A stretch of DNA of 64,000 nucleotides from Alphaproteobacteria bacterium (GTDB lineage: Bacteria; Pseudomonadota; Alphaproteobacteria; CAAHEQ01; UBA3637), in NCBI GenBank assembly GCA_045632845.1, contig JAZQXL010000020.1:99386-163385 (forward strand), written 5' to 3'. The notes beneath the pieces were generated by a model, which was given only the letters and a program-made list of their open reading frames with translations, did not search any database and was not told the DNA's origin. Shown here in pieces: positions 1,179 to 55,226 of this stretch. Position 1 is the first letter of the stretch; every line of letters begins with the position of its first letter. The translations under genes were made by a program, and so were the position numbers.

Positions 1179-1287
1179 ATGAGCGTGGCAAGAGGGTAAG
1201 AACCCGAGAAGAGGGTTTGTTCACAAAGTGGACGCCGAAATATTGAGGCGGTCCGAATAAAATGAGGACGAGGAATTTATTCCGAGC

Positions 1288-2493: not shown

Positions 2494-2673
2494 AAAAGGG
2501 AGCCAGTGCTCCCTTTTATCATCTTTTCATATCCACAAGCTCACAAACTGTGTTTTTGAGCAATACACTTTTTTCACAAATCTAAAAACCATTTATCATT
2601 TTCTATTGAAAAAACACCCCCAAAAGATTATAATAACTCAAGGGTATATGATACATAACAAAAGGGGGGAAAG

Positions 2674-3735: not shown

Positions 3736-3763
3736 AAAAATAAAATCAATTTTAAAGTGATTT

Positions 3764-6072: not shown

Positions 6073-7953
6073 TTAAATTTTCCACCAAGTTAATACATTC
6101 GCACCCTTTAATGGAACTGTTGTTGGCATTCCTATTGTATTTTGAAACATATATCTATGAGCAGGTGTATACCAATGCGGAATAACAATATGTTCATTTA
6201 ACAATACACGATCAAGCGCATGCACAGCCGTTATCAATTCTTCTTTTGAAGAAGACTGAATAACCAATTCAACCAAAGCATCAATTACTGGATTTTTAAG
6301 ACCACTATAATTCATTGATCCTTGGCTGTCCGCAGCAGAAGATGTCCAAAAATATCTTTGCTCATTCCCTGGAGAAAGTGATTGTCCCCAAACACTGACA
6401 ATCATATCATATTCAAACGAATCAAGCCGATTTTTATATTGCAACAAATCAACTGTTCGAATATGCGCTTTGATACCAAGACGCATCAATTTTCCAACAA
6501 AAGGCAGCGTAATGCGCTCCCATGCCGCTGCTGATGCAGTATCAATCAAAATCTCAAATTCAAATTCTTCCCCTTCTTTTTCCAAAAAGCCTTTTTCATT
6601 CACATTCCACCCTGAGGCTTTTAATAAATCCATCGCTTTATACAACCGTTCACGCACATCTGCTGATTCTTGTTGATATAAAGGCTCAAAAACAGTTTCA
6701 TCTAATTGATTCTTAAAAGGCTCTAATAATTTCAATTCATTTTCATCAGGTAACGTAGGCGCTTTTAAATATGAATTATCAAAAAAGCTGGTTGTTCTTG
6801 AATATAATCCATGAAAAAGATTATAATTCATCCAGTCAAAATCAAATGCCAAAGAAAGTGCTTTTCGAACATTCTTATCTTGAAACAATGGTTTTCTTAA
6901 ATTAAACACATACCCTTGCATACCACTTGGTAAATGATATTCAAAACTTCTTAATTTTATACGTCCATTTAAAACGTTTTTTTCATGCTGAAAATTCGCC
7001 CATTTTTTGGCTTCATTTTCAAGACGAACATCAAACTCTCCTGCTTTAAAAGCTTCTAAAGCAACCGTTGTATCTCGATAATAATCAAAATGGAACTTAT
7101 CAAAATGATAAAAACCTTTATTCACATTTAAATTTTTTGCCCAATATTTTTCATTTTTTTGATACGTAATAGAACGCCCCGCTGTAAAACCACTAATAAC
7201 ATATGGACCACTTGAAACTGGAACTTCTAATGTTGTTTTATCAAAATCTTGTTTACTCCACCAAGCAGATGACAAAACAGGTAACTCACCCAAAATAAAA
7301 GGAAGCTCTCTATTTTCTACATTTTCATAAAAATAAAAAGCAATTGTTTGTTCATCTTTAACCTCAACTTTTTCAACATCTCGATAATAATAACGATATG
7401 TGGGAGCCCCTTTTTCTTTCAACGTTTCAAAAGAAAACAAAACATCATTTGCTGTGATTTTTGAACCATCATTAAATGTTGCATTGGGATTGATATGAAA
7501 AACAACACCTTTTTTGTTTGGTAAAATATAAATGCCATCAGCAATTAATCCATACAATGAAAAAGCCTCATCTGAACTTTGTTTCATCAATGTATCATGA
7601 GTCAAACCAATCCCTGCTGGTGAAACACCATTAATTGAAAAAGGATTAAAAGAATCAAAAGAACCAAAAGAAGCCTGTTTAAGGGTTCCGCCGTTTGGAG
7701 CAGAAATATTCACATAATCAAAAGACACAAATCCCTCTTTATACTTGGGTTCACCATACATTGAAACAGCAGATTTAAAATCATATTCTTTCCCTTGCAC
7801 CATAAAAGAGAAAAAAACAAAACTCAAAGCGACAAATATTTTAACTAAAGACAACAAGTAACAAATCCTTTTAATAAAGATAAACAATTGTTTCGTTTTT
7901 GTTAAAAACAGATAAAACACTAGACTTTTTAAAGTATAATCAGTATAATACAA
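6073..7953 (-). CDS. ABC transporter periplasmic substrate-binding protein, family 5 (oligopeptide/YejA-like). True start probably downstream of the annotated ATG.
   Basis: ~600-aa SBP_bac_5-like sequence (FDYVNISAPNGGTLK..., YQKNEKYWAK..., WTSSAAD...). Hydrophobic signal-like segment KIFVALSFVFFSF about 40 aa into the ORF, so the N-terminus is uncertain. Confidence 0.75.
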   Translation of the reverse strand: MYYTDYTLKSLVFYLFLTKTKQLFIFIKRICYLLSLVKIFVALSFVFFSFMVQGKEYDFKSAVSMYGEPKYKEGFVSFDYVNISAPNGGTLKQASFGSFDSFNPFSINGVSPAGIGLTHDTLMKQSSDEAFSLYGLIADGIYILPNKKGVVFHINPNATFNDGSKITANDVLFSFETLKEKGAPTYRYYYRDVEKVEVKDEQTIAFYFYENVENRELPFILGELPVLSSAWWSKQDFDKTTLEVPVSSGPYVISGFTAGRSITYQKNEKYWAKNLNVNKGFYHFDKFHFDYYRDTTVALEAFKAGEFDVRLENEAKKWANFQHEKNVLNGRIKLRSFEYHLPSGMQGYVFNLRKPLFQDKNVRKALSLAFDFDWMNYNLFHGLYSRTTSFFDNSYLKAPTLPDENELKLLEPFKNQLDETVFEPLYQQESADVRERLYKAMDLLKASGWNVNEKGFLEKEGEEFEFEILIDTASAAAWERITLPFVGKLMRLGIKAHIRTVDLLQYKNRLDSFEYDMIVSVWGQSLSPGNEQRYFWTSSAADSQGSMNYSGLKNPVIDALVELVIQSSSKEELITAVHALDRVLLNEHIVIPHWYTPAHRYMFQNTIGMPTTVPLKGANVLTWWKI

Positions 7954-9040: not shown

Positions 9041-11212
9041 TTATTCTGCTGATGTTTCTTCAGCTTCTTTATGATGTTTTTTCTTCATTGGTTTTTCTTC
9101 CAACTCAACAGGTTCGCCTGTTGTTTGGTCAACACGTTTCATTGAAAGTTTGATTTTGCCACGATTGTCAATACCCATACAGACAACCTTGACTTTATCC
9201 CCTTCTTTGAGAACATCTGTTACTTTTTCAACACGGTGAGGTGCAATTTCTGAAACATGAACAAGGCCATCTCTTGTTCCCATAAAGTTAACAAAAGCAC
9301 CAAAGTCCATTAACTTAACAACTGTACCATCATAAATTTGACCAACTTCAGGTTCTAATACAATACCTTTGATCCAATTTAACGCAGCTTCACCAGCACC
9401 ACCATCAACAGAAGCGATATGGATTAAACCATCATCATCAATGTCAATTTTAGCACCTGTTTTTTCAACAATTTCACGAATGACTTTACCGCCTGTTCCA
9501 ATAACATCACGGATTTTTTCTTTATCAATTTTGTAAGAAATAATACGTGGTGCATTTGGACTAAGTTCTGCACGAGGAGCAGCCAAAGATTCAGCCATTT
9601 TATTCAAAATAAAGATACGACCTTCATGAGCTTGTTCCAATGCAATTGCCATAATTTCTTTTGTAATAGAAGTAATCTTAATGTCCATTTGAAGTGCTGT
9701 AACACCATCTTTTGTACCAGCAACTTTAAAGTCCATATCTCCCAAGTGATCTTCATCACCCAAGATATCAGATAAAACAACAAAAGAATCTTTTTCTTTA
9801 ATCAAACCCATTGCAATACCTGCAACTGGTTTTTTCATTGGAACACCTGCATCCATCAATGCCAATGTTGAACCACAAACGGTTGCCATTGAAGAAGATC
9901 CATTTGATTCCATAATTTCAGATACAACACGGAGTGTGTATGGGAAATCTTCTTTTGATGGTAACATTGGGTGAATTGCGCGCCATGCAAGTTTACCATG
10001 TCCAATTTCTCTACGACCTGGAGAACCCATACGACCAACTTCACCAACTGAGTATGGTGGGAAGTTATAATGTAACATAAAGTGCTCTTTATATTCACCC
10101 TGCAAAGCGTCAATAATTTGTTCATCTTCGCCTGTGCCTAATGTAGCAGTTACAAGAGCTTGCGTTTCTCCACGTGTGAATAATGCAGAACCATGTGTTT
10201 TTGGTAAGACATTAACTTCTGTTTCAATAACACGGATTGTTTTTGTATCACGACCATCAATACGAAGACCTGTGGATAAAACCATATCGCGAACTGTTCT
10301 TGCTTCTAATTCATGGAAAACTTGATCACAAATTGCATCTTCAGCTTCACGATCAGCAAACAAAGCATGTGCTTTTTCTCTGATTGCAGAAACTTGATTT
10401 AATCTTTCAAGTTTATTATGAATGTGATATGCTTCTTTTAATTCATCACCAAGATTTTCTAAAATTTCAGCACGAACTGTTGCATATTCTGCAGGTTCTT
10501 CTTTAACATCCCATGGATCTTTTGCACATTCTTCAGCCAAAGAAATAATCATATCGATAACTGGTTTTAAGCTATCATGACCAAAAGCAACAGCACCAAG
10601 CATTGTTTCTTCAGAAAGTTCTTGAGCTTCTGATTCAACCATCAAAACACCTTCAGATGTACCAGCAACAACCAAGTCTAATTGACTGTTTTTAACCACA
10701 TCTAAATCTGGGTTTAAGATGTACTCACCATCGATATACCCAACACGAGCACCAGCAATTGGGCCTAAAAATGGAATGCCTGACAATGTCAATGCAGCAG
10801 AAGCACCAATCATTGCGATAATATCTGGTTGAGTTTTCAAATCATGACTTAACAATGTAACAGTAACTTGTGTATCATTGTTAAAACCTTTAACAAACAA
10901 TGGACGAATTGGTCTGTCAATTAAACGAGATGTCAAAATTTCTGCCTCTGATGGTTTTCCTTCACGTTTAAAGAACCCACCAGGAATACGCCCAGCAGCA
11001 TAACTTTTTTCAATATAATTAACTGTTAATGGAATAAAATCTTCAAATGTATCTGGTGCTTTTTTGCTTGCACAAACAGCAGCATGCACCATTGTGTCCC
11101 CATAGCGTACAATCACAGCACCATCAGCTTGGCGTGAGATTTTACCTGTTTCGATTGAAAGAGGTTTGCCTCCCCACATCATTTCTTTTTTAAATGTTTT
11201 AAAAATAGTCAT
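9041..11212 (-). CDS. pnp: Polyribonucleotide nucleotidyltransferase (PNPase)
   Basis: [33 protein letters not shown]... Two RNase PH domains plus KH and S1. Start set at the Met matching the PNPase N-terminus. Confidence 0.92.
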
Positions 11213-11306
11213 TTTCTTTTCCTTCATACATACAAACTAAGACTTAAAACCCATTTCTAAGTCTTGAAAGGGGAACATCCCTTGATGCTCCCCTTGAAAA
11301 TCGTGG

Positions 11307-11576
11307 TTATTTACGTAAACCTAAACGTTTGATGAGTTCGTTGTAACGGCCTTCATCATCTTTCTTCAAGTACTTGAGCAAACGACGACGATTTGAAACC
11401 ATTTTCAAAAGACCGCGTCTTGAGTGGTGGTCTTGAGCATTTGATTTCATATGTTCTGACAAATAGTTAATTTTTGCTGTCAAAACTGCAACTTGAACTT
11501 CTGGTGAACCTGTATCACCTTCTTTTGTTGCATAATCAACAATAATTTGCTTTTTCATTTCTTTTGAAAGCGACAT
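11307..11576 (-). CDS. rpsO: 30S ribosomal protein S15
   Basis: [44 protein letters not shown]...[11 protein letters not shown]. Confidence 0.92.
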
Positions 11577-11601
11577 CGTAATTTTCCTTTCTTAATTTAA
11601 A

Positions 11602-12516
11602 TTAAACTTCCTCTGGAAAGACACGAAATGGTTTTAACACGCCATTTTCATACCGAACCAAAGCAACGACTTGTTGATTTAAGTGAAGAGCGATAACTGT
11701 TTGGTTTTGAACTTTTTGACCAGTTAAAATACCTTTTGCACTTAGCGCTTTTCCTTGCCTCAACGCCTTTGCCCCTTCCCCATCTACAGCCAGCACCAAG
11801 ATGTCGTCCAGTGCGGTTAAAACAGGGATAATAGACAAATCTTCTGGATTATACTCCTTTTTTTCCAAATTTTCAAGTAAAATCGAATGGTTAAGCGAAA
11901 AAGGACCGCATTTTGTTCTTCTTAAAACGGTAATATATCCATAACAACCTAATTTTCGGCCCATATCGTGCCCCAAAGAACGAACATAAGTTCCTTTTCC
12001 ACACTGTACTTCAAACAAGGTTTTGCTTCCCTCGTGAGAAATAACTTTTAAATCTTTAATCATAACAGGACGTGGTTTTAATTCTACATCAACACCTTTT
12101 CTTGCAAGCTCATAAGCCCTCTTCCCATTTATTTTAATTGCAGAATACAAAGGTGGTGTTTGCAAAATTTCCCCCTTAAACAAAGGCAAAATAGATTCAA
12201 TTTCTTCCAAAGAAGGTTGCTTGTCACTTTCAAACAATACTTCACCTTCTAAGTCATCTGTTGATGTTTCTTTTCCCCAAGTAACTTCAAACTGATAAAT
12301 TTTATCCCCATCCATAACATAAGGGATTGTTTTTGTTGCTTGACCTAAAGCAATGGGCAAAACACCTGTTGCAAGCGGATCCAAAGTTCCTGCATGACCG
12401 ATTTTTGAGGGATGCAAATATCTTTTGAGCCGATTAACAACGGTTGTTGAGCCCATTTCATAAGCTTTATCAATTACAAGCCAACCATTAATTTGATTGA
12501 TAATTTTTGCCATCAA
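11602..12516 (-). CDS. truB: tRNA pseudouridine(55) synthase
   Basis: GWLVIDKAYEMGSTTVVNRLKR...GHAGTLDPLATGVLPIALGQATK (TruB catalytic Asp motif). Position in the nusA-infB operon. Confidence 0.9.
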   Translation of the reverse strand: MMAKIINQINGWLVIDKAYEMGSTTVVNRLKRYLHPSKIGHAGTLDPLATGVLPIALGQATKTIPYVMDGDKIYQFEVTWGKETSTDDLEGEVLFESDKQPSLEEIESILPLFKGEILQTPPLYSAIKINGKRAYELARKGVDVELKPRPVMIKDLKVISHEGSKTLFEVQCGKGTYVRSLGHDMGRKLGCYGYITVLRRTKCGPFSLNHSILLENLEKKEYNPEDLSIIPVLTALDDILVLAVDGEGAKALRQGKALSAKGILTGQKVQNQTVIALHLNQQVVALVRYENGVLKPFRVFPEEV

Positions 12517-12939
12517 TTACAATTCTTCTTCCTCAATTTCTTTTTCAACATCTGCACGAACTTGTGGAGAATTTAAAAGATCATTGATATATTTTGAAGC
12601 TGCAAATCTATTGTCTGATTTAAAAATAATATCAGGAACAATTCTTAAACGAACAGATTTACCAATTTTATAACGGAACACACCTTTATGACGATTCAAT
12701 AATGTAATTTGTTCATCCAAATTAACTGCATCACCAATCGTTTCAACAAAAGCTGTTGCATATGATAAATCAGGAGAAATTGTCACTTGTGTTACCATAA
12801 TAAATGATGGTTTCAATCCTTCAATGAAAACTTCATCTTGTGAAAGCATTTTAGCAAGAACATGTCTGATTTCTTCAGCAACACGTAATTGACGTTGTGA
12901 AGGCGCTTTTGATTTTCCTTTTTCAGTATTTTTCATCAC
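12517..12939 (-). CDS. rbfA: Ribosome-binding factor A
   Basis: QRQLRVAEEIRHVLAKML...VTQVTISPDLSYATAFV. Operon position after infB. Confidence 0.88.
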   Translation of the reverse strand: MMKNTEKGKSKAPSQRQLRVAEEIRHVLAKMLSQDEVFIEGLKPSFIMVTQVTISPDLSYATAFVETIGDAVNLDEQITLLNRHKGVFRYKIGKSVRLRIVPDIIFKSDNRFAASKYINDLLNSPQVRADVEKEIEEEEL

Positions 12940-12944
12940 ACCTC

Positions 12945-15368
12945 CTATACATCAAAATTCAACTTAACTGCGATTTCTTCCATTTCGAAACATTCGATAA
13001 CATCACCAACTTTTAAGTCATCATAATTTTCAAAACTCATACCGCATTCATAACTTTCACGAACTTCTTTAACATCATCTTTAAAGCGTTTTAATTGGCT
13101 AAGTGCCCCAGTATAGATAACAACAGAATCTCTCAATAAACGAACTTTTGCACCACGTTTGACAATACCTTCTTTAACCATACAACCAGCAATTTTACCA
13201 ACTTTTGAAATTGAAATAACTTGGCGAATTTCAGCATAACCCAAGATTTTTTCTTTCAATTCTGGTTCAAGCAAGCCTGCAACAGCTTGTTTCATATCAT
13301 CAGCAACATCGTAAACAATCGAGTAGTAACGAATATCTACACCATCACGTTTTGCCATTTCACGAGCTGTTGGATTTGCACGAACGTTAAAGCCAATGAT
13401 AATTGCTTTTGAAGCACGTGCCAATGTAACATCAGATTCGTTAATTGCACCTACAGCACTATGTAATACATGAACTTTAACTTCATTATTTGCAATACGA
13501 GAAAGAATACCATTCAATGCTTCAACAGAACCTTGTACGTCACCTTTAATTAAAACAGGCAATTCTTTGATTTCACCAGCTTTAATTTTTGCCAACAAGT
13601 GTTCAGCACTGCTCATTGTTTTAACTTGCAATTGTTCTCTTGCTTTTCTTTGACGATAAGCAGAAATTTCCCTTGCTCTTGCTTCTGTATCTACTTCAAT
13701 AAAATCATCCCCTGCTGATGGCGTTCCTTGCAACCCAATAACTTCAACAGGTTGTGAAGGATATGCTTTATCCACACGTTGACCTTTATCATTAAAGAGT
13801 GAGCGAACACGACCCCATTCTTGACCAGAAATAAAGATATCACCCACATTTAATGTACCTTTTTGGACCAAAACAGTTGCAACTGAACCACGACCTTTAT
13901 CCATACGTGCTTCAACAACAACACCTTCTGCCATCCGTTTTGAAGAAGCTTTTAAATCAAGAACTTCAGCTTGCAACAAAATTGTTTCAATAAGCTTATC
14001 TAAATTGATGCGTTTTTTCGCAGAAACTTCAACATCAAGAACGTCACCACCCATTGATTCAACAACAACATCATGTTGCAACAAGTCTGTACGAACTTTT
14101 TGTGGATTTGCCCCTGGAACATCAATTTTGTTAATTGCAACAACGATTGGAACACCAGCAGCTTTTGCGTGGTGAATAGCTTCAATTGTTTGAGGCATAA
14201 CACTGTCATTTGCAGCAACAACCAAAACAACAAGGTCTGTTACCTTTGCCCCACGAGCACGCATTGCTGTAAACGCTTCGTGCCCAGGTGTATCAATAAA
14301 TGTAACCTTTTGACCTTCTGACAAACTAACTTGATAAGCACCAATGTGCTGTGTAATACCACCAGATTCACCTTGAGCAACATTTGATGAACGCAAAGCA
14401 TCCAACAAAGATGTTTTACCATGGTCAACGTGACCCATAACAGTTACAACAGGTGAACGTGGCTCCAAATCTTCTGGTAAATCATCTTCTTTTTTCAAAA
14501 TATCTTCAACATCAGATTCAGCAACACGTTTGATTTTGTGACCCAATTCTTCAACCACCAACTCCGCAGTATCTGCATCAATTGTTTGTGTAATTGTAAC
14601 CATCATACCAAGCTTCATCAAAACCTTAACAACTGTTGCGCCTTTTTCACTCATACGGTTTGCCAACTCTTGAACTGTAATTGTTTCTGGCACAACAACT
14701 TCACGAATAACTTTTTCTTGAACCTTTGGTTCCATATGTTTTAAACGTTCTTTTTCACGAGAGCGTTTAATTGATGCCATAGAACGGCGTTGATGACGAA
14801 CACCATCTTCCATATCATCACCATCAGAATCACTCATACTCATATTTTTATAAGCATTCATATTCATTTTTGATGAACGTTTTTCTTCATGAAACCCACG
14901 TGTTCTACCGCGATCTTCTGATTCAGATTCTCTTTCTTTCTTACGAGAAAAATTAGAATTTTCAACAGGTTTTTTATCATGTTTTTTTTCTGTGCGAGCT
15001 TCAACAACTTCTACCGGAGCTTCTTCTTCAACAACAGACGCTTCAACCTCTTTTTCTTCAACTGTAACAGCAGCAGCGGCTAATTTTTCTTGTTCTTCTC
15101 TTTGTTTTTGTTCAGCTTCCACACGTGCTTTTTCTGCAGCACGTTGTTGAGCCTCTTGAATCAATTTTAATTTTTGAGAAGCCTCTGTTGAAAGGACGTT
15201 AGGTTGTTGTTCTGCCGTAATAACACGTTTTTTACGAACTTCAACTTGAACCATGTTGGATTTTCCTGCGCCTGTATTTTGGCGAACTTGCGTATTTAAA
15301 GAAAGTGTTTTCTTTTTCAATTCTAACGTCTTCCCTGTTAACGTAAGTTGTTTCTTTTCTTCTGTCAT
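12945..15368 (-). CDS. infB: Translation initiation factor IF-2
   Basis: GTPase G-domain [32 protein letters not shown]. Long charged N-terminal region. 807 aa. Confidence 0.95.
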
Positions 15369-15383
15369 AGTTTATCCTTTCCT

Positions 15384-15986
15384 TTAATAGCCTTGTAAAA
15401 GGTTTACTTTTTTAATCAGTTGGATTAAAACAGTTGCCATCTTTTCATCTGTTATAACCAAGTGAACTTGTTCATCTTGCCCTGTTACACTTCCCAATTC
15501 TTGTCTTGAAAAACAATTTAAAATAGGAAAAGTATCTGTTGAACGGTACAATTTATCATGTCCATTTTTTGCTGCATCTTGAGCCTCAAAAGCAATCAAG
15601 ACTTTTTGAGCTTCAATCGCTTTTTTAACCCCCTCAAACCCAAAAACCAAACACCCTGATTTTCGAGCAAATGAAATCAAATTAAGAGCTTTTGTTTTTA
15701 ATGAATTTATAACCATTTCTCTTAAATTTTCAGGAATTTTAACAGTCCCTTTTGCAGCTTTATAAAATATTTTTTTTTCAATAGCTGCATCCAACGAATC
15801 CTTTGTTGGATACAACCATATACCAGCACCTGGTAATTTTTCATTTACATCAAACACAACTTCCCGATCAGGAGAGATGACAAAACGAATCATCTCTTCC
15901 CGAGGAAAGAATTTTTTTGTAACAAAACAACTTTTCAAACCATTATCAGCTGCTCGTTTATGTTGATGTCTATTAATCTTATTCAA
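15384..15986 (-). CDS. YlxR (DUF448)-L7Ae-like RNA-binding protein of the nusA-infB operon
   Basis: CFVTKKFFPREEMIRFVISPD...LPGAGIWLYPTKD (YlxR motif) plus C-terminal L7Ae-like segment. Sits between nusA and infB, as is typical in alphaproteobacteria. Confidence 0.75.
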   Translation of the reverse strand: MNKINRHQHKRAADNGLKSCFVTKKFFPREEMIRFVISPDREVVFDVNEKLPGAGIWLYPTKDSLDAAIEKKIFYKAAKGTVKIPENLREMVINSLKTKALNLISFARKSGCLVFGFEGVKKAIEAQKVLIAFEAQDAAKNGHDKLYRSTDTFPILNCFSRQELGSVTGQDEQVHLVITDEKMATVLIQLIKKVNLLQGY

Positions 15987-24469: not shown

Positions 24470-25744
24470 ATGCTTGATATCAAATTTATTCGTGAAAACC
24501 CTGATATTGTCAAAAAAACTTTGGCTGAAAAATGCTTAACATTAGATATTGATGAACTTTTATCGATTGATAAAAAAATCATCCAAATCAAACAATTGAT
24601 GGAAGCTGAATTACAAAAAAGAAATGCTCTTAGCAAAGAAATGCCAAAAGCTTCACCTGAAAGAAAAGAAGAAATCAAAGAACTTTCTAAAAAATCAGGG
24701 CAACAAGCAGCCGCATATGCCGAAGAATTAAAACCTTTAGAAGAACAATTCAAATCAATGATGGGCATGACACCAACTATCCCTGCTCCAGATGTTCCAC
24801 GTGGAACAAGTGAAGAAGAAAACGTTGTCGTTCGCCAAGTTGGCGAAAAACCAACATTCGATTTTGAAATGAAAGACCATGTTGAGTTGATGGATTTGAA
24901 CAACTGGGGTGAATTCAAAAAAATCTCTCAAATTTGCGGCAGCCGCACTGTCGGGATTAAAGGTGAACTTCTTCAATTAGAAATGGCTTTATGGCAATTT
25001 ACTGTTAATAAATTGATGGAAAAAGGCTTTACCGTAATGAGCGTCCCTTCCCTCTCATTTGAAAACGCATTCTATCACACAGGCCACTTCCCATTTGATT
25101 ATGATTCTGTTTACTCTATGCCAAAAGACAACCTTTATTTAGCTGGAACAGCTGAAGTTATTTTAAACAGTATTCACGCAGGCGATATTCTTAAAGAAGC
25201 TGATTTGCCAATTATGTACGCAGGATTCTCTCCTTGTTTCAGACGTGAAGCAGGCGCTGCTGGTAAAGACACAAGAGGACTTATCCGTGTTCACCAATTC
25301 AGCAAAGTTGAACAATACATTATTTGTAAAGCTGAAGTTGCCGAATCAGATAAAATGCATCAATTTATTTTGCAAAATGCTGAGGAAGTTATGCAAGAAA
25401 TGGAAATTCCATATCAAATCATTGCGAACTGCACAGGCGATATGGGTGCGGGCAAATACCGTATGAACGACATTGAAGCTTGGTGTCCAGGTCAAAACCA
25501 ATACAGAGAAACGCACAGCTGTTCTTCTTTATTAGACTGGCAAGCACGTCGAACAAACATCCGCTATCGTGAAGATGAAACAGGCAAAGTTAAATATGCT
25601 TATACATTGAACAATACAGGCCTTGCAACACCACGTGTGTTGGTTGCCTTTATTGAAAATCACCAACAAGCTGATGGATCTGTTCGTATTCCAAAAGCTC
25701 TTCAACCTTATATGGGTGGAAAAACAAAAATCGGTGGAAAATAA
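24470..25744 (+). CDS. serS: Serine--tRNA ligase
   Basis: MLDIKFIRENPDIVKKTLAEK, N-terminal coiled coil, class II motifs (FRREAGAAGKDTRGLIRVHQFSKVE, GLATPRVLVAFIENHQ). Confidence 0.95.
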   Translation: MLDIKFIRENPDIVKKTLAEKCLTLDIDELLSIDKKIIQIKQLMEAELQKRNALSKEMPKASPERKEEIKELSKKSGQQAAAYAEELKPLEEQFKSMMGMTPTIPAPDVPRGTSEEENVVVRQVGEKPTFDFEMKDHVELMDLNNWGEFKKISQICGSRTVGIKGELLQLEMALWQFTVNKLMEKGFTVMSVPSLSFENAFYHTGHFPFDYDSVYSMPKDNLYLAGTAEVILNSIHAGDILKEADLPIMYAGFSPCFRREAGAAGKDTRGLIRVHQFSKVEQYIICKAEVAESDKMHQFILQNAEEVMQEMEIPYQIIANCTGDMGAGKYRMNDIEAWCPGQNQYRETHSCSSLLDWQARRTNIRYREDETGKVKYAYTLNNTGLATPRVLVAFIENHQQADGSVRIPKALQPYMGGKTKIGGK

Positions 25745-35074: not shown

Positions 35075-37696
35075 ATGAAACAACATAAACAAACGCCGAT
35101 GATGGCGCAATATACAGAAATTAAAAACCAATATCCTGATTGCTTATTATTTTATCGTCTTGGCGATTTTTATGAATTGTTTTATGAGGATGCAAAAATA
35201 GCATCACGCGTTCTTGGTCTTGTTTTAACCTCACGCGGCAAATCCGAAGGAACACAAAATGTTCCAATGTGCGGTATTCCTTTTCACGCCTATCAAAACT
35301 ATCTCACAAGACTTGTTAAAGATGGTTTTAAAGTTGCTATATGCGAACAAGTTGAAGACCCTGCTGAAGCAAAAAAACGTGGTTCTACCGCTATTGTAAA
35401 AAGAGATGTTGTTCGCATTGTTACCGCAGGTACCTTAGTCGAAGATGAACTTTTAGAAGCTAAAAAGAATAATTTTTTGCTCACTGTTGTCCCTGGGTTT
35501 AATGATTTTGCAATTGCATGGGCCGATGTTTCAACTGGTGTATTTTTCACTCAAACATGTTCCGAAGAAGATATTTTTTCTGTCATTATGAGACTTGCCC
35601 CTGCTGAAATTTTATTGCCCGAAAACTTCATTGAGCTTCATCCAACCGCTATTAAGGAAAAAGATGAGCGCTACACATTTTGGAAAACAGAAAATTTTTC
35701 ATACTTAAAGGGTAAAGATGAATTAGACGCCTTTTTTAACAAACAAAACACTGATGGATTTGAGCGTCATGAAATAACAGCATGTGGGGCTTTATTAGCC
35801 TATATCTTACACACTCAAAAAGAAACAAAACCAGCCTTAAGATTCCCTATCAAAACACACTCGCACAAGTTTATGGAAATTGATGCCTCAACAAGATCTA
35901 GTCTTGAATTAACGACATCTTTAGGCAACAACAAAAATGAAACAAGTGTATTAAAAACCATTGATGAAACAAAAACAGCAATGGGGGCTAGGTTATTAAA
36001 TACACAGTTATCCACACCACTTTTAGATATAACTGAAATCAACAACCGTTTAGATAAAATTGATTTTTTCAGCCAAAATCCATTGATAAGGGATAAAGTT
36101 AGAGATGTTTTAAAAACAATACCAGATATTGAACGCGCTTTATCACGTATTTTAATTGGAAATAGCAACCCAAAAGAAATTTTATCCACAGCTCTTGGAC
36201 TTGAAAAACTACCTCTTCTTCGTGAAATTATCTCAAACAATCTTGTTCCTCCATCACTTCAAAAAGATCTTCAAATTATGGGAGAATATTCTGGGCTTGT
36301 AAAAGAAATTACAAGAGCAATTAATCCTGAAGCAAAAAATCAATTAGCTAGAAGCGGTGGTTTCATCCGTATGGGATATTCCGCTCAACTAGATGAGTTA
36401 GTTTTGTTGAAAGAAAATATCAAATATACCTTGCTTGAACTGCAAAAAAAATATTCTGAACAAACAGGTATTTCAAATATCAAAATCGCATTTAACAACT
36501 TGGTTGGATACTACATTGAAGTACCATCAAAATCAGCAGACCCCCTTTTAACAGATAAATCACAAGGATTTATCCACAAGCAAACAATGCTTAATGTGGT
36601 ACGTTTTACAACTGAAGAATTAATTGCACTTGAACATAAGATTATGAATGCAAATGAATTAGCAATTGAAATGGAAGTTGCTATATTCAATCAGTTTGTT
36701 GAACAAATAAGAAGCCTTAATGATTCCATCGTTATGACTTGTATTGCTCTTAGCAATATTGACGTTGCCACAGCCCTTTCCTATTATGCAGAAATCAATC
36801 ATTGGACTCGTCCAATTTTAACAGATGATAACTCTTTTGAAATCAAAGCTGGAAGACATCCTGTTGTTGAAAAATCACTTGCAAAAAACAGTGTTTCTTT
36901 TATTCCCAACAACTGTTCAATGTCTATCGATGCAAGCTTACTTTGGATTATAACAGGTCCCAATATGGCTGGTAAAAGTACCTTTTTACGACAAAATGCC
37001 GTTATTGCAATTTTGGCACAAATGGGATCTTTTGTTCCTGCTGAATATGCAAAAATCGGCATTATTGACAAACTTTATTCTCGTGTTGGGGCAAGTGATG
37101 ATTTAGCTAGAGGTAGATCAACATTTATGGTTGAAATGGTTGAAGTTGCAGCCATTTTGAACAATGCAACAGAAAAATCTCTTGTTATTTTAGATGAAGT
37201 TGGTCGTGGAACCGCAACCTATGATGGCCTTTCTATTGCTTGGTCAGTGATTGAATATTTGCATGACGTGAATAGATGTAGAGCTCTTTTTGCCACACAT
37301 TACCACGAATTAACAGCCCTTGCTAATCGGATGGATAAAATTGATCTTTACACAATGCGTATTAAAGAATGGAAGGGCGACATTGTCTTTTTGCATGAAA
37401 TATGCCAAGGGGCCACAGATAGATCCTATGGTATTCATGTTGGAAAATTAGCTGGATTACCTTCAAGTGTCTTAACAAGAGCTGAAGAAATACTTGAGCA
37501 ATTGGAAGAAAAAAAACAAGATCAAAAACCATTATTTGACGATTTGCCCTTGTTTTCACAATGTTTAAAAACAATATCAAAAGAAAAAGAATCTCCTGCC
37601 CTTGAAGCTTTAAAAAAGCTAGATGTTGATTCTTTATCACCACGTGATGCTTTGGATTATATGTATAAATTAAAAAGTATGTTGGAGGAAAAATGA
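35075..37696 (+). CDS. mutS: DNA mismatch repair protein MutS
   Basis: [30 protein letters not shown] (mismatch-binding domain) and Walker [14 protein letters not shown]. 873 aa. Confidence 0.95.
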
Positions 37697-41518: not shown

Positions 41519-41735
41519 ATCAACCCCCTATACAACATATACTTCATTTTATTATATTATACAATAAATTAAAAAACTATTAACAAAAAAAATTTCATAA
41601 AAAAAATCGTATCTTTTTTAAAATATGGATTATGAAGCTAAATTTGATATTTTTCTTGACTTTTTAGCAAAAAAAGTGCATTTTAACCGCTGAAAAACCA
41701 TACAAAAAGGTAAACAACAACAAAGAGAGTTAAAA

Positions 41736-44972: not shown

Positions 44973-45059
44973 GCTTTAAAACGCTTTTTAAGCTAAAAAA
45001 ACCATCAGACAGACTCTACTGGTGGTTTTTTTATATCTAAAATAAAAAATATTCATCAA

Positions 45060-45075
45060 TGTTTCACGTGAAACA
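45060..45075. promoter_or_regulatory. parS site (TGTTTCACGTGAAACA)
   Basis: Perfect 16-bp ParB-binding palindrome. Confidence 0.85.
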
Positions 45076-45090
45076 TTATACATAAAAAAG

Positions 45091-45099
45091 TTATCCACA
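45091..45099. promoter_or_regulatory. DnaA box TTATCCACA
   Basis: Perfect consensus 9-mer within the parS cluster downstream of parB. Confidence 0.5.
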
Positions 45100-45144
45100 G
45101 GCCCTGATGGTAATTAAATTTTTGTTTAACAAATAAAAAAAGAA

Positions 45145-45160
45145 TGTTTCACGTGAAACA
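45145..45160. promoter_or_regulatory. parS site inside a 30-bp extended palindrome (aagaatGTTTCACGTGAAACattctt)
   Basis: Perfect parS. The extended arms are identical to the copy at 47720. Confidence 0.85.
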
Positions 45161-45186
45161 TTCTTTTTTTTGTAATCGATTCTAAT

Positions 45187-45202
45187 TGTTTCACGTGGAA
45201 CA
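45187..45202. promoter_or_regulatory. parS-like site (TGTTTCACGTGGAACA, 1 mismatch)
   Basis: Sequence match. Confidence 0.7.
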
Positions 45203-45221
45203 TTTTTAATTTAGATTGAGT

Positions 45222-45237
45222 TGTTTCACGTGAAACA
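45222..45237. promoter_or_regulatory. parS site
   Basis: Perfect TGTTTCACGTGAAACA. Confidence 0.85.
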
Positions 45238-45240
45238 AAA

Positions 45241-45266
45241 AAAGAGCGATTTCTCGCTCTTTTTTA
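45241..45266 (-). terminator. Terminator after parB
   Basis: aaagagcgatttctcgctctttttt. Confidence 0.55.
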
Positions 45267-46154
45267 TTCAATAGGACCGCCTAAACTTAAGCGCTGAAGA
45301 ATTAAATCTAACTTATCCAAATCTAATCCAGAAATAACAACGGACCCTGTTAAACCATTCCATTTAATAGAAACAGATGTATTTAAAACACTGCTCAATT
45401 CTTCTTCTAATGTCAAAATATCACCATCTTTTTCTGGTTTTGGCTTAGCTTTTGATATTGTCTTTTTGGAGGCTAATTTTTCAGTTTGACGAACGCTATA
45501 GCCTTTTTTCAAAACTTCAGTGGCTAATTCAACAGGATTTTTTGCCGTTAAAAGAGCACGTGCATGGCCAACAGTTAATTCTTTTTTCTCAACCATCCCT
45601 TTGATTTCATCTGGCAAATCAATCAAACGCATCATATTTGCCAAATGACTACGGCTTTTACCAATCACTTTTGAAAGCTCTTCCTGAGTGTATTTAAACT
45701 CTTCTAAGAGGCGTTTATAAGCTTCAGCCTCTTCTAATGGGTTTAAATCTTCACGTTGAAGGTTTTCAATTAAAGCAACTTCTAAAGCATCTTTATCTGA
45801 AAAATCTTTAATAATTGCTGGAATTTCCTTAAGACCGGCCATTTTTGATGCTCTAAAGCGACGTTCTCCAGCAATCAATTCATATCCACCTTCTTTTTTA
45901 GGATCATTTCGAACCAAAAGAGGTTGTAAAACGCCTTTTTCTTTAATTGATAATACCAAATCAGCCAAAGCTTCTGTTGAAAAAACACGACGTGGTTGAT
46001 ATGGACTTGGAACAATATTGTCGATATTAATTAATGTTACACCATCTGAAGAAGCTTTTTCAGCACCTTTTTTTTCAGATACCTCAACGATATCGTCATC
46101 ATCTTCCCCCATCAAAGCACTTAAACCGCGCCCTAAACGCACATTTTTATCCAT
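45264..46154 (-). CDS. parB: Chromosome partitioning protein ParB
   Basis: ParB box GERRFRAS. HTH region. 296 aa. Follows parA with a 8-bp overlap. Confidence 0.92.
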   Translation of the reverse strand: MDKNVRLGRGLSALMGEDDDDIVEVSEKKGAEKASSDGVTLINIDNIVPSPYQPRRVFSTEALADLVLSIKEKGVLQPLLVRNDPKKEGGYELIAGERRFRASKMAGLKEIPAIIKDFSDKDALEVALIENLQREDLNPLEEAEAYKRLLEEFKYTQEELSKVIGKSRSHLANMMRLIDLPDEIKGMVEKKELTVGHARALLTAKNPVELATEVLKKGYSVRQTEKLASKKTISKAKPKPEKDGDILTLEEELSSVLNTSVSIKWNGLTGSVVISGLDLDKLDLILQRLSLGGPIE

Positions 46155-46932
46155 GGATTAAAAACTCCCTTTCTCTTTTTAAAACTTCTGCAGCTAATTT
46201 AATATAGCTTTGGGCCCCTGCACTCTTATAATCATACAACATAACAGGTATGCCATGTGATGGAGCCTCAGGAATCCGCACATTGCGTGGAATAAGTGTA
46301 TCATAAACTTGATCACCAAAAAACTCTTTAACATCACTTACAATAGACTTAGAAAGATTTGATCTTCCATCAAACATAGTCAAAACAATACCATGAACCT
46401 TCAATGATGGATTAAAATTCTTTTTAATTTTATTAATTGTTTTCATCAAATCTGCAACACCTTCAAGTGCTAAATACTCACATTGAACAGGAATAATCAC
46501 ACAATCAGAGGCTGCCAAAGCATTCATTGTTAACAAACCAACTGCAGGTGGACAATCAATAAAAATATAATCAAAATCATCAGCTTGTTCTAATGCTTTT
46601 TTTAAGTAAAATTGAGGTTTATCAGAACCAGCCAATTCAATATCGACGCCAAGCAATTCCTTACTTGCTGGCAATACATACAAATAAGGGATATCCGTTG
46701 CACAGATACAATCTTTTAAATTTTCACCGCCTACAAATACAGTATATGAATTCTTACTTCCCAAGCGTCTTTTGGCCCCAACACTAACTGTTGCGTTACC
46801 TTGTGGATCTAAATCAACAACCAAAACTTTCTTTTCTACAGCAGCCAAAGCTGTTGCTAAATTAATTGTTGTTGTTGTTTTACCGACACCACCTTTTTGA
46901 TTAGAAACAGAAAAAATTCGAGCTTTTTTCAT
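46147..46932 (-). CDS. parA: Chromosome partitioning ATPase ParA (Soj)
   Basis: Deviant Walker A NQKGGVGKTTTTINLA. 261 aa. Confidence 0.93.
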   Translation of the reverse strand: MKKARIFSVSNQKGGVGKTTTTINLATALAAVEKKVLVVDLDPQGNATVSVGAKRRLGSKNSYTVFVGGENLKDCICATDIPYLYVLPASKELLGVDIELAGSDKPQFYLKKALEQADDFDYIFIDCPPAVGLLTMNALAASDCVIIPVQCEYLALEGVADLMKTINKIKKNFNPSLKVHGIVLTMFDGRSNLSKSIVSDVKEFFGDQVYDTLIPRNVRIPEAPSHGIPVMLYDYKSAGAQSYIKLAAEVLKREREFLIHG

Positions 46933-47540
46933 AAATACTCAACCTCCGTTATTTTTAAAATACAACCATTTTTGTTTGTTTTACTTGTTATTTTTTCTTT
47001 TTTAAACCGAAAAGAAACTTCCTTTAACTCTGAATCAACAGACTCCCCTTTTAAAAGAAGGTATATTGTATCAGATTTATAAAAAGAAGCACCAAAATTC
47101 AGCAAAAGAGCTACAGAACCCAATGCGCGTGATGAAATAATATCAGCTTTAATATCTTTAATTTCTTCAATGCGCGCATTCAAAACTTCTAAATTTAAGC
47201 CTAAAACTCTGGAAACCTCTTTTAAAAAGACTGTTTTTTTATTATCACTTTCAATTAAAATTATTCTTTGTAATCCACCACTTAGCACTTTGTTTAAAAT
47301 AGCAACCACAACAGCAGGAAAACCACCACCAGAGCCCAAATCAACCAATGTTTTAGCATTTTTATTAATTTCAAAATAAAGTTGTGCAGAATCCAAAATA
47401 TGGCGCTCCCACAAAGAGTTCAACTCTTTGTTTGATACCAAATTCACAGCTTTTTGCCACTTTTTAACAAGCGCGACATATTGATTTAATAAATCCTGAG
47501 CTGGAAAAATTTGTTGTTCTAATTGTTTCACGTGAAACAT
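46929..47540 (-). CDS. rsmG: 16S rRNA (guanine527-N7)-methyltransferase RsmG (GidB)
   Basis: SAM motif LVDLGSGGGFPAVVVAI. Position upstream of parAB. Confidence 0.88.
   Translation of the reverse strand: MFHVKQLEQQIFPAQDLLNQYVALVKKWQKAVNLVSNKELNSLWERHILDSAQLYFEINKNAKTLVDLGSGGGFPAVVVAILNKVLSGGLQRIILIESDNKKTVFLKEVSRVLGLNLEVLNARIEEIKDIKADIISSRALGSVALLLNFGASFYKSDTIYLLLKGESVDSELKEVSFRFKKEKITSKTNKNGCILKITEVEYL
47524..47539. promoter_or_regulatory. parS site overlapping the rsmG start codon
   Basis: Perfect TGTTTCACGTGAAACA. The ATG of rsmG (CAT on +) lies inside/adjacent to it. Confidence 0.8.
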
Positions 47541-47627
47541 CCCCTTATTATTATCTTAACTAAACATTAACTTTTTTAAAAAAGGAATGCAAGTATTTTT
47601 TATAAAAAAAGAAAAAATACCACCTAA

Positions 47628-47643
47628 TGTTTCACGTGAAACA
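47628..47643. promoter_or_regulatory. parS site
   Basis: Perfect match. Confidence 0.85.
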
Positions 47644-47719
47644 CTGAAAATTAATAAAAAAGAATAAAATATTCTTATTTTTTTCTGATTACTTAGTGTT
47701 TCACATAATAAAAAAAGAA

Positions 47720-47735
47720 TGTTTCACGTGAAACA
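47720..47735. promoter_or_regulatory. parS site in extended palindrome (preceded by half-site TGTTTCAC at 47698)
   Basis: Perfect match. Flanks identical to 45139-45166. Confidence 0.85.
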
Positions 47736-47787
47736 TTCTTTTTTTAACGACAATTTTAATGACACATTTTAAAGATCATTTTTTTTA

Positions 47788-47803
47788 TGTTCCACGTGAA
47801 ACA
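47788..47803. promoter_or_regulatory. parS-like site (TGTTCCACGTGAAACA, 1 mismatch)
   Basis: Sequence match. Confidence 0.7.
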
Positions 47804-47841
47804 TAAAAAAAACACCCATTAAAGGGTGTTTTTTAACATTT

Positions 47842-48285
47842 TTAATTAAATATAAACTGAATACTGTTTAAATCATCGCAATCTTTTTTAACAAAACTAT
47901 TAATCTTAACTGTAACAGCTTCGGGTATAGCATTAACCAACATATCGCAGCGATCTTTATCAACATTTTTTAATTCAATAAAAAATTGATCATTATTAAT
48001 TCCGCCAATATTCCAGTCAAAAATTCCAAAATCATACTTGAAATCTTCTTTTTTCAAATTCATATAGTTACCCATAGATAACATACGAATGTCATGAACC
48101 AACAATTGAAGTTGTGCAATCAAAGAAACATCACTTACAACAGTTTTTTTAGCAAATTTAACCGTTTGTGAAACATTTTGAGTTTGTTGTGCAGCTTCTT
48201 TAACCGAGCCCATCGAACTCATTAATAGAAAAAAAAGCCCAACTCCCCCTAATAAGAAAACCAACAGTTTCATTCTATCCCCCAA
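47842..48285 (-). CDS. Hypothetical secreted protein
   Basis: Signal-peptide-like N-terminus LLVFLLGGVGLFFLLMSSMGS. 147 aa. Two Cys. Overlaps the dnaQ stop. Confidence 0.5.
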   Translation of the reverse strand: MGDRMKLLVFLLGGVGLFFLLMSSMGSVKEAAQQTQNVSQTVKFAKKTVVSDVSLIAQLQLLVHDIRMLSMGNYMNLKKEDFKYDFGIFDWNIGGINNDQFFIELKNVDKDRCDMLVNAIPEAVTVKINSFVKKDCDDLNSIQFIFN

Positions 48286-48965: not shown

Positions 48966-49733
48966 TTACAAAACTCTAAAAGTTATAAACATATGCTATT
49001 ATAATTGAAAAGAATTTAGATATCAAGTAGAAAAAACAGACTCGGGATAAAATGAAAAAAACATAGATATTCAATAGGTTAAGACTGTTTCTAAAAAGCA
49101 CATTTTTAATAAAAGTAATCAAAAACATCCAAAACGACGTAGTATAGAGAAATCAAGGCTTTCCTGTGGATAAAAAAAATTCCTGTGGATAAGTGAGGAT
49201 TCAAAAAATAATTTTAATTTTATACCGAAACACACTTATTTTATTCACACCCCAAAACTACAAATAAGTTAAAATAAAAAGAATCGGAAAAGTAAGATTC
49301 GAACTTGAAAATATCCGAGTCGGGACTATATCAAAAAACAGTCAATAAAAATAAAAAAAAGTTATGCACAATATCCACAATATATACTAATAAAAAATTA
49401 TTTATTTTAAATAAGATTAGAATGGTTTTATGTGAATTCTTTCACACATCTGTTTTGAAAAAAATGCTTGCGATTTAAAAAAAAGATTGTTACGTTAAAA
49501 TTATCGAAGATGAAAAAACAATCTTCCTCTCTTCACTCCTTGTTTTTTCAAAATCGTTTTTCTGGATAACAAAAAATCTTAACTTTGTGATTATTTTTAC
49601 ACCAAAAGAGATACCTCTTTATTTTTATGTTTTGCAAAAAGAAGAGGTTAAAAAATTAAATTTATAAGAACAGAGTGAATGTTAAAAAATGTTTGAAAGA
49701 ATATAATTTAGTGTTTGAATGATATATTAAAAT
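48966..49733. promoter_or_regulatory. Candidate chromosomal replication origin (oriC): AT-rich intergenic region with clustered DnaA boxes
   Basis: Two perfect TGTGGATAA boxes (49166-49174, 49184-49192), each inside a 13-bp direct repeat ttcctgtggataa. Near-consensus boxes TTATGCACA/ATATCCACA (49362-49379) and TCTGGATAA (49561-49569). Long A/T runs. No ORF of 60 aa or more. ~1.2 kb from the parS cluster. Confidence 0.5.
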
Positions 49734-54681: not shown

Positions 54682-55226
54682 GGGTTATTTCTGGGCAATA
54701 TCGTGGCAAAAAATTGTTAGCTGCTGATGAAGAAATCACAAGACCAACCTCTGATCGAGCAAAAGAAGGTCTTTTTAATATTTTAAACAATTATCTTTTG
54801 AAAAATTCAAAATCCTGGCAAGAAATTTTCTTTTGTGATGTTTTTGCTGGTTCTGGTGCGATTGGAATTGAGGCTGTTTCACGTGGAACAAAAAATGTTT
54901 TTCTTTTTGAAAACAATAAGTTAGCATTGAAAATGATCCGTGAAAATTCAAAAGGAATGCCTGTTCAAATCATTGAAACAGATGCTTGTTTTCCTCCAAC
55001 TGCAAAAAACAAAATGGATATTATATTTTTTGATGCCCCTTATGGAAAGGGTTTGTGGCAAAAATCATTGGAGGCTTTTTATAAACAAGGGTGGATAGAT
55101 TCTAACACATTGGTTATTGTTGAAATTGATAAAAAGATAAAAGAAGAAATCCCCTCCTCTTTTATTTGTACAAGGGAGCAAGAATATGGACGTAATTTAT
55201 TTTTGTTCTTACAATTGGGGGATTGA
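54678..55226 (+). CDS. rsmD: 16S rRNA (guanine966-N2)-methyltransferase RsmD
   Basis: MRVISGQYRGKKL...DVFAGSGAIGIEAVSRG...FFDAPY. Confidence 0.85.
   Translation: MRVISGQYRGKKLLAADEEITRPTSDRAKEGLFNILNNYLLKNSKSWQEIFFCDVFAGSGAIGIEAVSRGTKNVFLFENNKLALKMIRENSKGMPVQIIETDACFPPTAKNKMDIIFFDAPYGKGLWQKSLEAFYKQGWIDSNTLVIVEIDKKIKEEIPSSFICTREQEYGRNLFLFLQLGD

Follow-up and report, generated by a model that had tools for sequence, protein, structure and literature searches.

An expanded array of parS sites around the rsmG-parA-parB operon, near the candidate replication origin of an uncultured low-GC alphaproteobacterium

Organization of the par locus

The operon rsmG-parA-parB of an uncultured low-GC alphaproteobacterium is bordered on both sides by sites matching the parS consensus, eight in all, split 4+4 around the operon and contained within 2.7 kb. 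The operon lies in a stretch of 64,000 nt (contig JAZQXL010000020.1, positions 99,386–163,385 of the forward strand, assembly GCA_045632845.1, Alphaproteobacteria bacterium), which we refer to as the window. From its genes, sites and position we consider it very probable that this locus is the origin-proximal chromosomal ParABS centromere of the organism, with its eight parS sites in two clusters of four. In kind, it corresponds to a well-known type of chromosome-segregation locus in expanded form and is otherwise an ordinary ParABS centromere.

The three genes are on the reverse strand, and the identities that a first-pass annotation had given them were borne out by matches to TIGR00180 (parB), to the ParA-family ATPases (parA) and to TIGR00138 (rsmG). 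The first gene, rsmG (also gidB; 46929–47540), matched TIGR00138 at the equivalog level, and parA (46147–46932) encodes a Soj-type protein of 261 aa with a deviant Walker A motif (KGGVGKTT; SNQKGGVGKTTTT at residues 10–22) and without an N-terminal DNA-binding extension. The product of parB (45264–46154) scored 214 bits against TIGR00180 (cut-off 58) and shows the motifs LGRGLSAL, GERRFRA and ENLQRED, a helix-turn-helix and a C-terminal domain; PF02195, PF17762 and PF23552 (ParB_N, HTH_ParB, ParB_C) are on record for a 100% identical protein (P0001). Among solved structures, its nearest relative is Caulobacter ParB in complex with parS (6T1F; E = 6e-62, residues 6–239 aligned). GERRFRA and IENLQREDLN are invariant across 17 relatives, and the N-terminus, MDKNVRLGRGLSALMG, carries the ParA-stimulating peptide LG(R/K)GL, of which L7, G8, G10 and L11 are invariant. 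By its sequence, the protein is a canonical CTPase-type, CTP-dependent ParB. All the sequence-level features of ParABS systems that we looked for were found, namely the ParB domains, the LG(R/K)GL peptide, the Walker A motif of ParA, parS sites in cis and an origin-proximal position.

A pattern search of the window located TGTTTCACGTGAAACA without mismatches at 45060, 45145, 45222, 47524, 47628 and 47720, and with one mismatch at 45187 (TGTTTCACGTGGAACA) and 47788 (TGTTCCACGTGAAACA), reproducing every coordinate of the first-pass annotation. With the consensus tGTTNCACGTGAAACa as criterion, these six perfect and two one-mismatch sites are accompanied by two outliers elsewhere in the window. 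Dinucleotide-preserving shuffles of the window gave an expectation of 0.04 matches by chance, and none of 100 shuffles reached the 10 matches observed. These results support genuine chromosomal parS sites beside a canonical parAB operon.

We numbered the sites from 1 to 8 by ascending window coordinate, with parS-1 to parS-4 downstream of parB and parS-5 to parS-8 on the upstream side. Within a cluster, neighboring sites are spaced by 35–104 bp, and 2.3 kb separate the two clusters; all eight sites are noncoding, except that parS-5 overlaps the rsmG start. The downstream cluster occupies a pocket of around 200 bp between the convergent intrinsic terminators of gatB (hairpin at 44994–45033, forward strand; -16.3 kcal/mol, z -5.1) and of parB (45238–45265, reverse strand; GAGCGA...TCGCTC followed by a T-run; -16.8 kcal/mol, z -4.9), the latter being kept in an alignment of the downstream region across relatives. 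In this pocket, parS-1 (45060–45075, a perfect 16-bp palindrome) adjoins the gatB terminator and parS-4 (45222–45237, perfect) is immediately past the parB terminator; between them lie parS-2 (core 45145–45160), centered in a perfect 36-nt palindrome (45135–45170) that consists of an A-run, parS and a T-run, and the one-mismatch site parS-3 (45187–45202), which reads TGTTCCACGTGAAACA in the parB sense. The upstream cluster extends from the rsmG start to the terminator predicted by folding at the end of the dnaQ-orf147 transcription unit (47807–47834, reverse strand). It comprises parS-5 (47524–47539, perfect), which contains the rsmG start codon; parS-6 (47628–47643, perfect), which forms a pair with parS-5 at 104 bp from center to center; parS-7 (core 47720–47735), in a perfect 38-nt palindrome (47709–47746) again built of an A-run, parS and a T-run; and parS-8 (core 47788–47803, one mismatch), in a 34-nt palindrome (47779–47812) with the opposite arrangement of T-run, parS and A-run, which abuts the orf147 terminator.

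Most bacteria contain fewer than five parS sites (PMC8743542). As a background set for the density of the array we used 80 diverse parB loci (parB ± 10 kb) from among the matches listed in a contig scan with an alignment of ParB, whose best identity was 57% and which included no close relatives among the matches listed. None of these 80 loci exceeded three parS in a 3-kb span, versus eight in the window and 6–15 in relatives. The earlier description of the array as unusually dense is therefore correct with respect to every one of these loci, but the array is not unprecedented, because that of Myxococcus xanthus is denser. M. xanthus contains 24 parS sites, most of them (about 23) within around 3 kb and at around 30 kb from oriC (bioRxiv 10.1101/2021.05.05.442810); the two cases are alike in being very dense chromosomal arrays near parAB that nucleate, or here would nucleate, one partition complex, whereas the M. 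xanthus array is also larger, belongs to a different phylum and is farther from oriC, and the text consulted describes neither a promoter or start-codon arrangement nor extended palindromes. Caulobacter crescentus (6T1F/7BM8; PMC5815017) is a nearer comparison, as it is also alphaproteobacterial and its ParB is the closest solved relative of the one described here; it has five strong parS sites in 5 kb, beside parAB and at around 8 kb from ori (PMC5815017). Nevertheless, the Caulobacter sites are intragenic, whereas here eight near-perfect sites occur in 2.7 kb, symmetric about the operon and noncoding save parS-5, and two of them bracket the predicted operon promoter.

From what is known of the family, ParB would load as a CTP-dependent clamp at each parS site, slide outwards and allow reloading. 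In Caulobacter, ParB spreads around 2 kb per site, and it was proposed that clustering compensates for this by raising the local amount of ParB (PMC5815017). Given the spacings within and between clusters, and the extent of spreading in this closest characterized homolog, the clamps from eight loading sites in 2.7 kb would be expected to merge into one continuous complex of high occupancy over rsmG-parA-parB, beside oriC, which ParA would then segregate; the location of the added sites between terminators would keep them out of transcribed DNA. The dense zone of ParB nucleation and spreading over its own operon that was envisaged from the first reading of the sequence is thus supported by a genuine dense parS array at a canonical parAB locus, and such coverage is normal for centromeres.

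Conservation and expansion of the parS array

An exact look-up with the ParB of the window itself, and with the identical protein P0001, gave no record. Close relatives were recovered via exact-protein look-ups and are given here with the identity of their ParB. The comparison of parS numbers with relatives, advised in the first-pass annotation, yielded 6–15 sites down to 71% ParB identity and a total range of 2–15. The 4+4 layout is found in loci L093 (99% identity) and L081/L082 (93%), with the same offsets from the parB start as in the window, approximately -1640, -1580, -1489 and -1385 on one side and +917, +952, +994 and +1080 on the other. There are 5+2 sites in L094 (80%), 3+3 in L086 (79%) and 3+12 in L088 (71%), where the 12 downstream sites occupy a gene-free stretch of 1.45 kb after parB (10920–12371). 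The sites of this L088 array are spaced by 100–180 bp and most have their own extended palindromic arms. Loci L089–L091 (64–72%), as well as the metagenome contig L092, contain only the pair flanking the predicted promoter, sometimes degenerate. Considering individual sites, parS-5 has the same offset from the parB start (-1385) in all relatives. Every relative whose ParB is 79% identical or more has parS-4 at its position (+917), and relatives in that range also keep parS-3 (around +952), including its variant sequence; orthologs of parS-1 are present in L093, L081, L083, L084/L085 and L086.

Variation in the number of sites is also seen at very short evolutionary distance. Loci L084 and L085 encode identical ParB proteins and have three (2477–2603) and six (2472–2881) downstream sites, respectively, which is a copy-number polymorphism; within the insertion of L085, gene calling gave a 100-aa gene that is probably spurious. 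Since relatives with 64–72% ParB identity keep only the promoter-flanking pair while the counts vary elsewhere, the comparison indicates that the pair parS-5/parS-6 is ancestral and that the other six sites are a fast-evolving, lineage-specific expansion in one sub-clade. This rapid growth and shrinkage (2–15 sites overall; three versus six with the same ParB) bears on how bacterial centromeres grow, a question that has been raised explicitly (PMC5815017). An origin of the arrays by tandem duplication was rejected because Tandem Repeats Finder (TRF), run on the window and on the 12-site array of L088, identified no repeat unit in the surroundings of the sites of either; the sites of both arrays have in common only the core, plus idiosyncratic arms.

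The contigs of L083, L084, L085, L094 and L095 end inside the upstream parS cluster. Apparently, the repeated palindromes break metagenome assemblies at this locus; in practice, the extended parS palindromes also interrupt the assembly of metagenome bins. That repeats disturb assembly here is what would be expected if the array were itself an artefact of assembly, or if it were a mobile palindromic element that has nothing to do with ParB, of the type of repetitive extragenic palindromes (REP) or miniature inverted-repeat transposable elements (MITE). This is, however, highly improbable: ENA, NCBI and Logan provide independent assemblies that share these sites with identical offsets; the core of the sites is the universal parS consensus and they are beside a canonical parB; and they form no tandem-repeat units, with only 10 copies in 64 kb, all near the par locus or the origin.

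parS sites flanking the predicted operon promoter

Site parS-5 overlaps both candidate start codons of rsmG, ATG at 47540–47538 and GTG at 47531–47529, which upholds the earlier observation that this site covers the initiation codon. In any case the start is inside parS-5, because there is no other canonical in-frame start codon before the conserved RsmG core. As read from the sequence, a Shine-Dalgarno motif AAGGGG (47541–47546, reverse strand), kept as GGGG or GAGG in the alignment of upstream regions from seven lineages (ParB identity 64–100%), directly abuts the ATG with zero spacer and is 9 nt upstream of the GTG. This spacing, the lack of an ATG at the position equivalent to 47540 in L089, the sequence CACATG at the parS center of L091 and the choice of the parS-central codon by gene callers in L088–L091 make the GTG at 47531–47529, at the center of parS-5, the probable start of rsmG. 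Translational control through a hairpin at this start was discarded, since the predicted mRNA fold is too weak (-4.7 kcal/mol, not significant).

The upstream alignment contains a block of invariant columns between parS-6 and parS-5 (47556–47592, reverse strand) that reads CTTGCA-N15-AGTTAATGTTTNNTTAA. We predict here the sigma-70-type promoter of rsmG-parAB, with the -35 hexamer TTGCAT (47592–47587), a 17-nt spacer and the -10 hexamer TAATGT (47569–47564). Transcription would start at around 47557, placing parS-6 at approximately -71 to -86 and parS-5 at approximately +19 to +34. A metagenome scan with the lineage-specific promoter pattern returned one match, in a contig of 1 kb.

The predicted -10 hexamer overlaps a TTAA-N7-TTAA box (47556–47570), and TTAA-N7-TTAA is the CtrA-box consensus in Alphaproteobacteria. 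The motif is depleted in the window, with only two copies versus 9.35 expected; the second (41569–41583) belongs to the promoter region of the divergent gatC and orf96-virB4. Relatives keep both boxes, and L094 retains the TTAA halves with a wholly different N7 spacer. In sequence, therefore, the element at the predicted rsmG-parAB promoter corresponds to a CtrA-type box.

The literature still treats the control of chromosomal ParA and ParB levels as an open question (PMC4010829; 2026 preprint PMC13371061). Occupancy by ParB of the pair flanking the predicted promoter, at around -79 and +26, may cause negative feedback on the transcription of rsmG-parA-parB. The first-pass annotation had proposed such autoregulation from the overlap with the rsmG start; it is plausible and is strengthened by the comparative data, through the bracketing pair and the start at the parS center, but the same conservation is expected from a plain ancestral centromere. 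We hold feedback to be a serious possibility that falls a little short of probable.

The pair bracketing the invariant promoter block is kept down to 64% ParB identity. Likewise, we count in favor of feedback an A7>C variant common to both flanking sites of L090 and to the upstream site of L091 (TGTTTCCCGTGAAACA, an asymmetric parS found at positions 8503 and 8619 of L090 and 8518 of L091); this shared variant may reflect co-evolution of the sites with the specificity of ParB. Additionally, other lineages too have a parS at the codon with which the first gene of the par operon starts; this arrangement occurs in four cases among the 107 sites of the 80 listed loci, versus around 0.1 expected by position, and in at least three phyla. 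The site encodes the start MFHVK of RsmG in L001 (around 8619), of ParA in the Planctomycetia locus L018 (around 9047) and of ParA in the Pseudodesulfovibrio locus L031 (around 8570), which has a second parS 35 bp upstream of that on the start codon.

Comparable arrangements have been described in other bacteria. In Pseudomonas aeruginosa, ParB represses the promoters adjoining the intergenic sites parS3 and parS4 (PMC7022226, PMC5521831); this lowering of transcription by parS-bound ParB beside a promoter is our working model for feedback, although its targets are neighboring genes and not the par operon; KorB and plasmid ParB systems, which belong to the same comparison, act through other operators and partner proteins. 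Mycobacteria share the gene order gidB/rsmG-parA-parB, and the -10 element of a gidB promoter overlaps a perfect parS, so that the site coincides with promoter signals of the first gene and its authors proposed regulation by ParB (PMC2346475). The promoter sandwich is thus partly precedented in mycobacteria, but these have two parS sites only, belong to an unrelated phylum and show the overlap at the -10 element instead of at the 5′ untranslated region and start codon, and regulation is a proposal there too.

Several observations count against feedback. Spacing of the parS-5/parS-6 pair varies from 92 to 116 bp among relatives, without strict helical phasing; the number of helical turns is mostly 9.8–10.1, but 8.76, 9.14, 9.62 and 11.05 also occur. 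CTP-bound ParB departs parS quickly. The promoter TTGCAT-17-TAATGT is a prediction from conservation and consensus, and a generic promoter scan of the region gave no more matches than were obtained in shuffles. The parAB1 operon of Vibrio cholerae is not autorepressed (PMC4010829), and Spo0J of Bacillus subtilis leaves the expression of parS-adjacent genes essentially unaltered. Moreover, the conservation of the flanking pair is equally explained by an ancestral centromere locked in place by the overlap with the start codon. The locus could accordingly be a centromere only, in which all eight sites are used for segregation, and perhaps for loading SMC, with the start-codon overlap fixing the site and neither this overlap nor the promoter sandwich having a regulatory effect. 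The variable spacing and the V. cholerae and B. subtilis results favor this alternative, as do the common occurrence of parS in or near rsmG and parA in diverse bacteria, in any reading frame, and the weakness of the start-codon hairpin as RNA. Conversely, the recurrence of parS on start codons in at least three phyla and the identical variant at both flanking sites of L090 speak against it, and intergenic parS sites beside promoters do repress in P. aeruginosa; we give this alternative real weight, while stopping short of calling it probable.

For its part, feedback through ParB, with a promoter conserved between two parS sites and a start codon at the center of one of them, constitutes a concrete and easily testable model. 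Similar arrangements exist in culturable bacteria, such as those with Pseudodesulfovibrio- and Planctomycetia-type ParA genes starting with MFHVK.

Palindromic extensions of parS

The first-pass annotation reported identical extended arms for parS-2 and parS-7; these are real and longer than was noticed, as the segments 45132–45170 and 47707–47745 are 100% identical over 39 nt and contain the palindromes of 36 and 38 nt described above. Folded as RNA, the hairpins reach -16.8/-16.9 kcal/mol (z around -5.2) for parS-2 and -17.9 kcal/mol (z -6.1) for parS-7, and on both strands the hairpin is followed by a U-tract, with flanking runs of 7–8 A and 7–8 U. Their stems are AT-rich, with three G-C pairs out of 16–17 and a base made up entirely of A-U pairs, and so lack the GC-rich stem of classical terminators. 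No known RNA family overlapped the arrays, and a search of the window for such families found only four tRNAs.

Palindromic extension is widespread in the clade, a feature that the first-pass annotation had noted for two sites only. At least three additional complementary pairs flank the core in 26 of 60 clade sites (around 40%), compared with 3.1% in a null taken from neighboring DNA (p = 1.7e-23), and at least five do so in 18 of the 60, versus 0.46% in the null. When right flanks were permuted among 71 distinct sites, the complementarity within sites was in excess at positions 1–8, with an overall value of 0.453 against 0.345 ± 0.018 and a maximum of 0.415 in 2000 permutations. The arms themselves are diverse, with 27 distinct sequences among 30 extended sites, and they covary: among orthologous sites, seven pairs had changed on both sides, versus 3.3 ± 1.3 in shuffles, and the covariation score was 0.196 versus 0.110 ± 0.020, a value reached by none of 500 shuffles and far above that of slid controls. 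Compensatory changes in the arms are seen at the parS-2 orthologs of L083 and L085, and at parS-7 even in L093 (99% ParB identity), where A>C is matched by T>G and the arms AAAAAAAGAA/TTCTTTTTTT become AAACAAAGAA/TTCTTTGTTT. The arms are also oriented, since the A-run is on the left and the T-run on the right in 24 cases and the reverse in four (p = 1.8e-4).

Extended sites are likewise found in diverse bacteria (12 of 97 parS, versus 1.6% in the null; p = 7e-8), and several of these have the predicted form of textbook intrinsic terminators. In the Paraburkholderia locus L052 (6281–6314), parS is part of a hairpin of -29.7 kcal/mol that lies 32 bp past a stop codon and is followed by six U. 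A parS site at around 3.7 kb upstream of parB is at the top of a GC-rich hairpin with a T-run, at the 3′ end of a gene, in L052, L017, L023, L039 and L077 (at around 6270–6480), and there is a further case at 3478 in L016; these loci belong to Burkholderiaceae and other bacteria.

The extended palindromes might double as hairpins whose role, as intrinsic terminators active in both directions or as insulators, would be to protect the pockets of ParB loading from transcription; equivalently, existing terminator hairpins might be the preferred place for new parS sites to arise. The extension of 26 of the 60 sites, the excess complementarity and covariation with 27 of 30 arms distinct, the stable folds (-17 to -18 kcal/mol; z between -5 and -6) with seven consecutive U after them, and the extended sites elsewhere, including terminators such as that of L052, are in agreement with this proposal; so is the orientation bias of 24 to 4, which a purely mutational correction of palindromes does not predict. 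In common with bidirectional intrinsic terminators, the elements of the window have a stable hairpin that on either strand is preceded by an A-tract and followed by a U-tract. They differ from them in that their stems are AT-rich at the base, without any G-C pair there, and in that every extended site of the window is behind a stronger, GC-richer canonical terminator; additionally, a clean T-run is absent from many arms of L088. The AT-rich bases and the position behind stronger terminators weaken the terminator proposal in the window, and overall we regard it as possible but distinctly doubtful.

The arms could instead be a neutral by-product of template switching, an established mutational mechanism by which quasi-palindromes are corrected. 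A perfect 16-bp palindrome folding back in single-stranded DNA during replication would allow one arm to be copied onto the other, lengthening palindromes and producing apparently compensatory changes in a single step, without selection. Such a process would explain the double compensatory changes between strains at 99% ParB identity, the idiosyncratic arm sequences and the tendency of flanking copies in one genome to match (39 identical nt in the window; the G variant in both copies of L081), which suggests copying or conversion. It is orientation-neutral, however, and predicts neither the bias of 24 to 4 nor the form with GC-rich stem and T-run of other phyla; the orientation bias favors selection for a hairpin over template switching, and we consider a neutral origin of the arms rather unlikely.

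A broader, joint proposal can be drawn from the sequence statistics, namely from the extension and covariation of the palindromes, their orientation bias and the recurrence seen in Planctomycetota, Desulfobacterota and Burkholderiaceae. According to it, parS would be recurrently built into longer hairpin palindromes that act at the level of RNA or single strands as terminators or insulators around loading zones, scaled into arrays in this clade, while the start-codon parS (M-F-H-V-K) would be a convergent, cross-phylum module for feedback on ParA and ParB levels; taken as a whole, we judge this proposal unlikely to hold. In the open-access literature on parS with cruciforms, terminators or hairpins we found no description of extended parS palindromes, nor, in open-access papers, any of their covariation or of the cross-phylum MFHVK start arrangement. 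If true, covarying extended palindromes at parS would add a layer of RNA or DNA structure to a textbook site.

Candidate replication origin and neighboring sequences

The parS array is at 1.2–3.9 kb from a candidate oriC, a 768-bp intergenic region between dnaQ and trxB (48966–49733) with 24% G+C and six DnaA boxes. It is the stretch of the window with the densest DnaA boxes and includes two perfect ones 19 bp apart, in a repeat of CCTGTGGATAA; its layout is kept in the seven relatives examined (7/7), and no dnaA gene adjoins it. When the GC skew of each gene was regressed on its strand and on the side of the chromosome, a switch of skew emerged at 49–52.5 kb. Perfect DnaA boxes (TTATCCACA) are enriched around 15-fold in the window, with 12 copies versus 0.8 expected (10271, 13768, 32043, 36008, 36182, 36570, 45091, 49165, 49184, 50090, 51167 and 53203), and they change strand between 45.1 and 49.2 kb, being nearly all on the forward strand to the left and all on the reverse strand from 49.2 kb onwards. 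From the conserved cluster of DnaA boxes, the skew switch and the strand flip of the boxes we infer that 48966–49733 is the probable oriC.

One of the perfect boxes (45091–45099, forward strand) is among the downstream parS sites, as had been pointed out in the first reading of the sequence. The box is indeed present, but it is kept only in L093 and L083 (94–99% ParB identity) and is absent from L081, L084/L085 and L086 (93% or less), and the main cluster of boxes is that at 48966–49733. Since only the two closest relatives conserve it, we no longer consider it a functional partner of the array, and its location is probably incidental. A half-site GTTTCAC reported at 47698 (47698–47704, forward strand) also exists, as an isolated element; it is not kept in relatives, and the window shows no enrichment of isolated half-sites (eight seen versus around 10 expected). 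It was dropped as a functional element and is probably a chance occurrence or a remnant.

The two outlying parS matches are intragenic. The first (54875–54890, one mismatch) is inside rsmD, a gene for an RsmD-type methyltransferase, at 7 kb from the array, and is kept in L093, L081/L082 and L086, that is, down to 79% ParB identity. The second (24793–24808), a symmetric variant with two mismatches (TGTTCCACGTGGAACA), is inside serS, at 21 kb from the array.

The genes gatCAB are downstream of parB and convergent with it, and an open reading frame (ORF) of 147 aa (47842–48285) and dnaQ are upstream of rsmG. The 147-aa ORF gave no family match; it overlaps the end of dnaQ, its position is kept in all relatives (143–159 aa) and its N-terminus looks hydrophobic. 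The par operon of L090 (65% ParB identity) lies between runs of nine and 10 consecutive small ORFs (79–194 aa; 1–4398 and 11263–15967), which have no Pfam matches and look like tandem paralogous families. Lastly, three of the perfect DnaA boxes of the window are grouped within 560 bp inside mutS (36008–36578).

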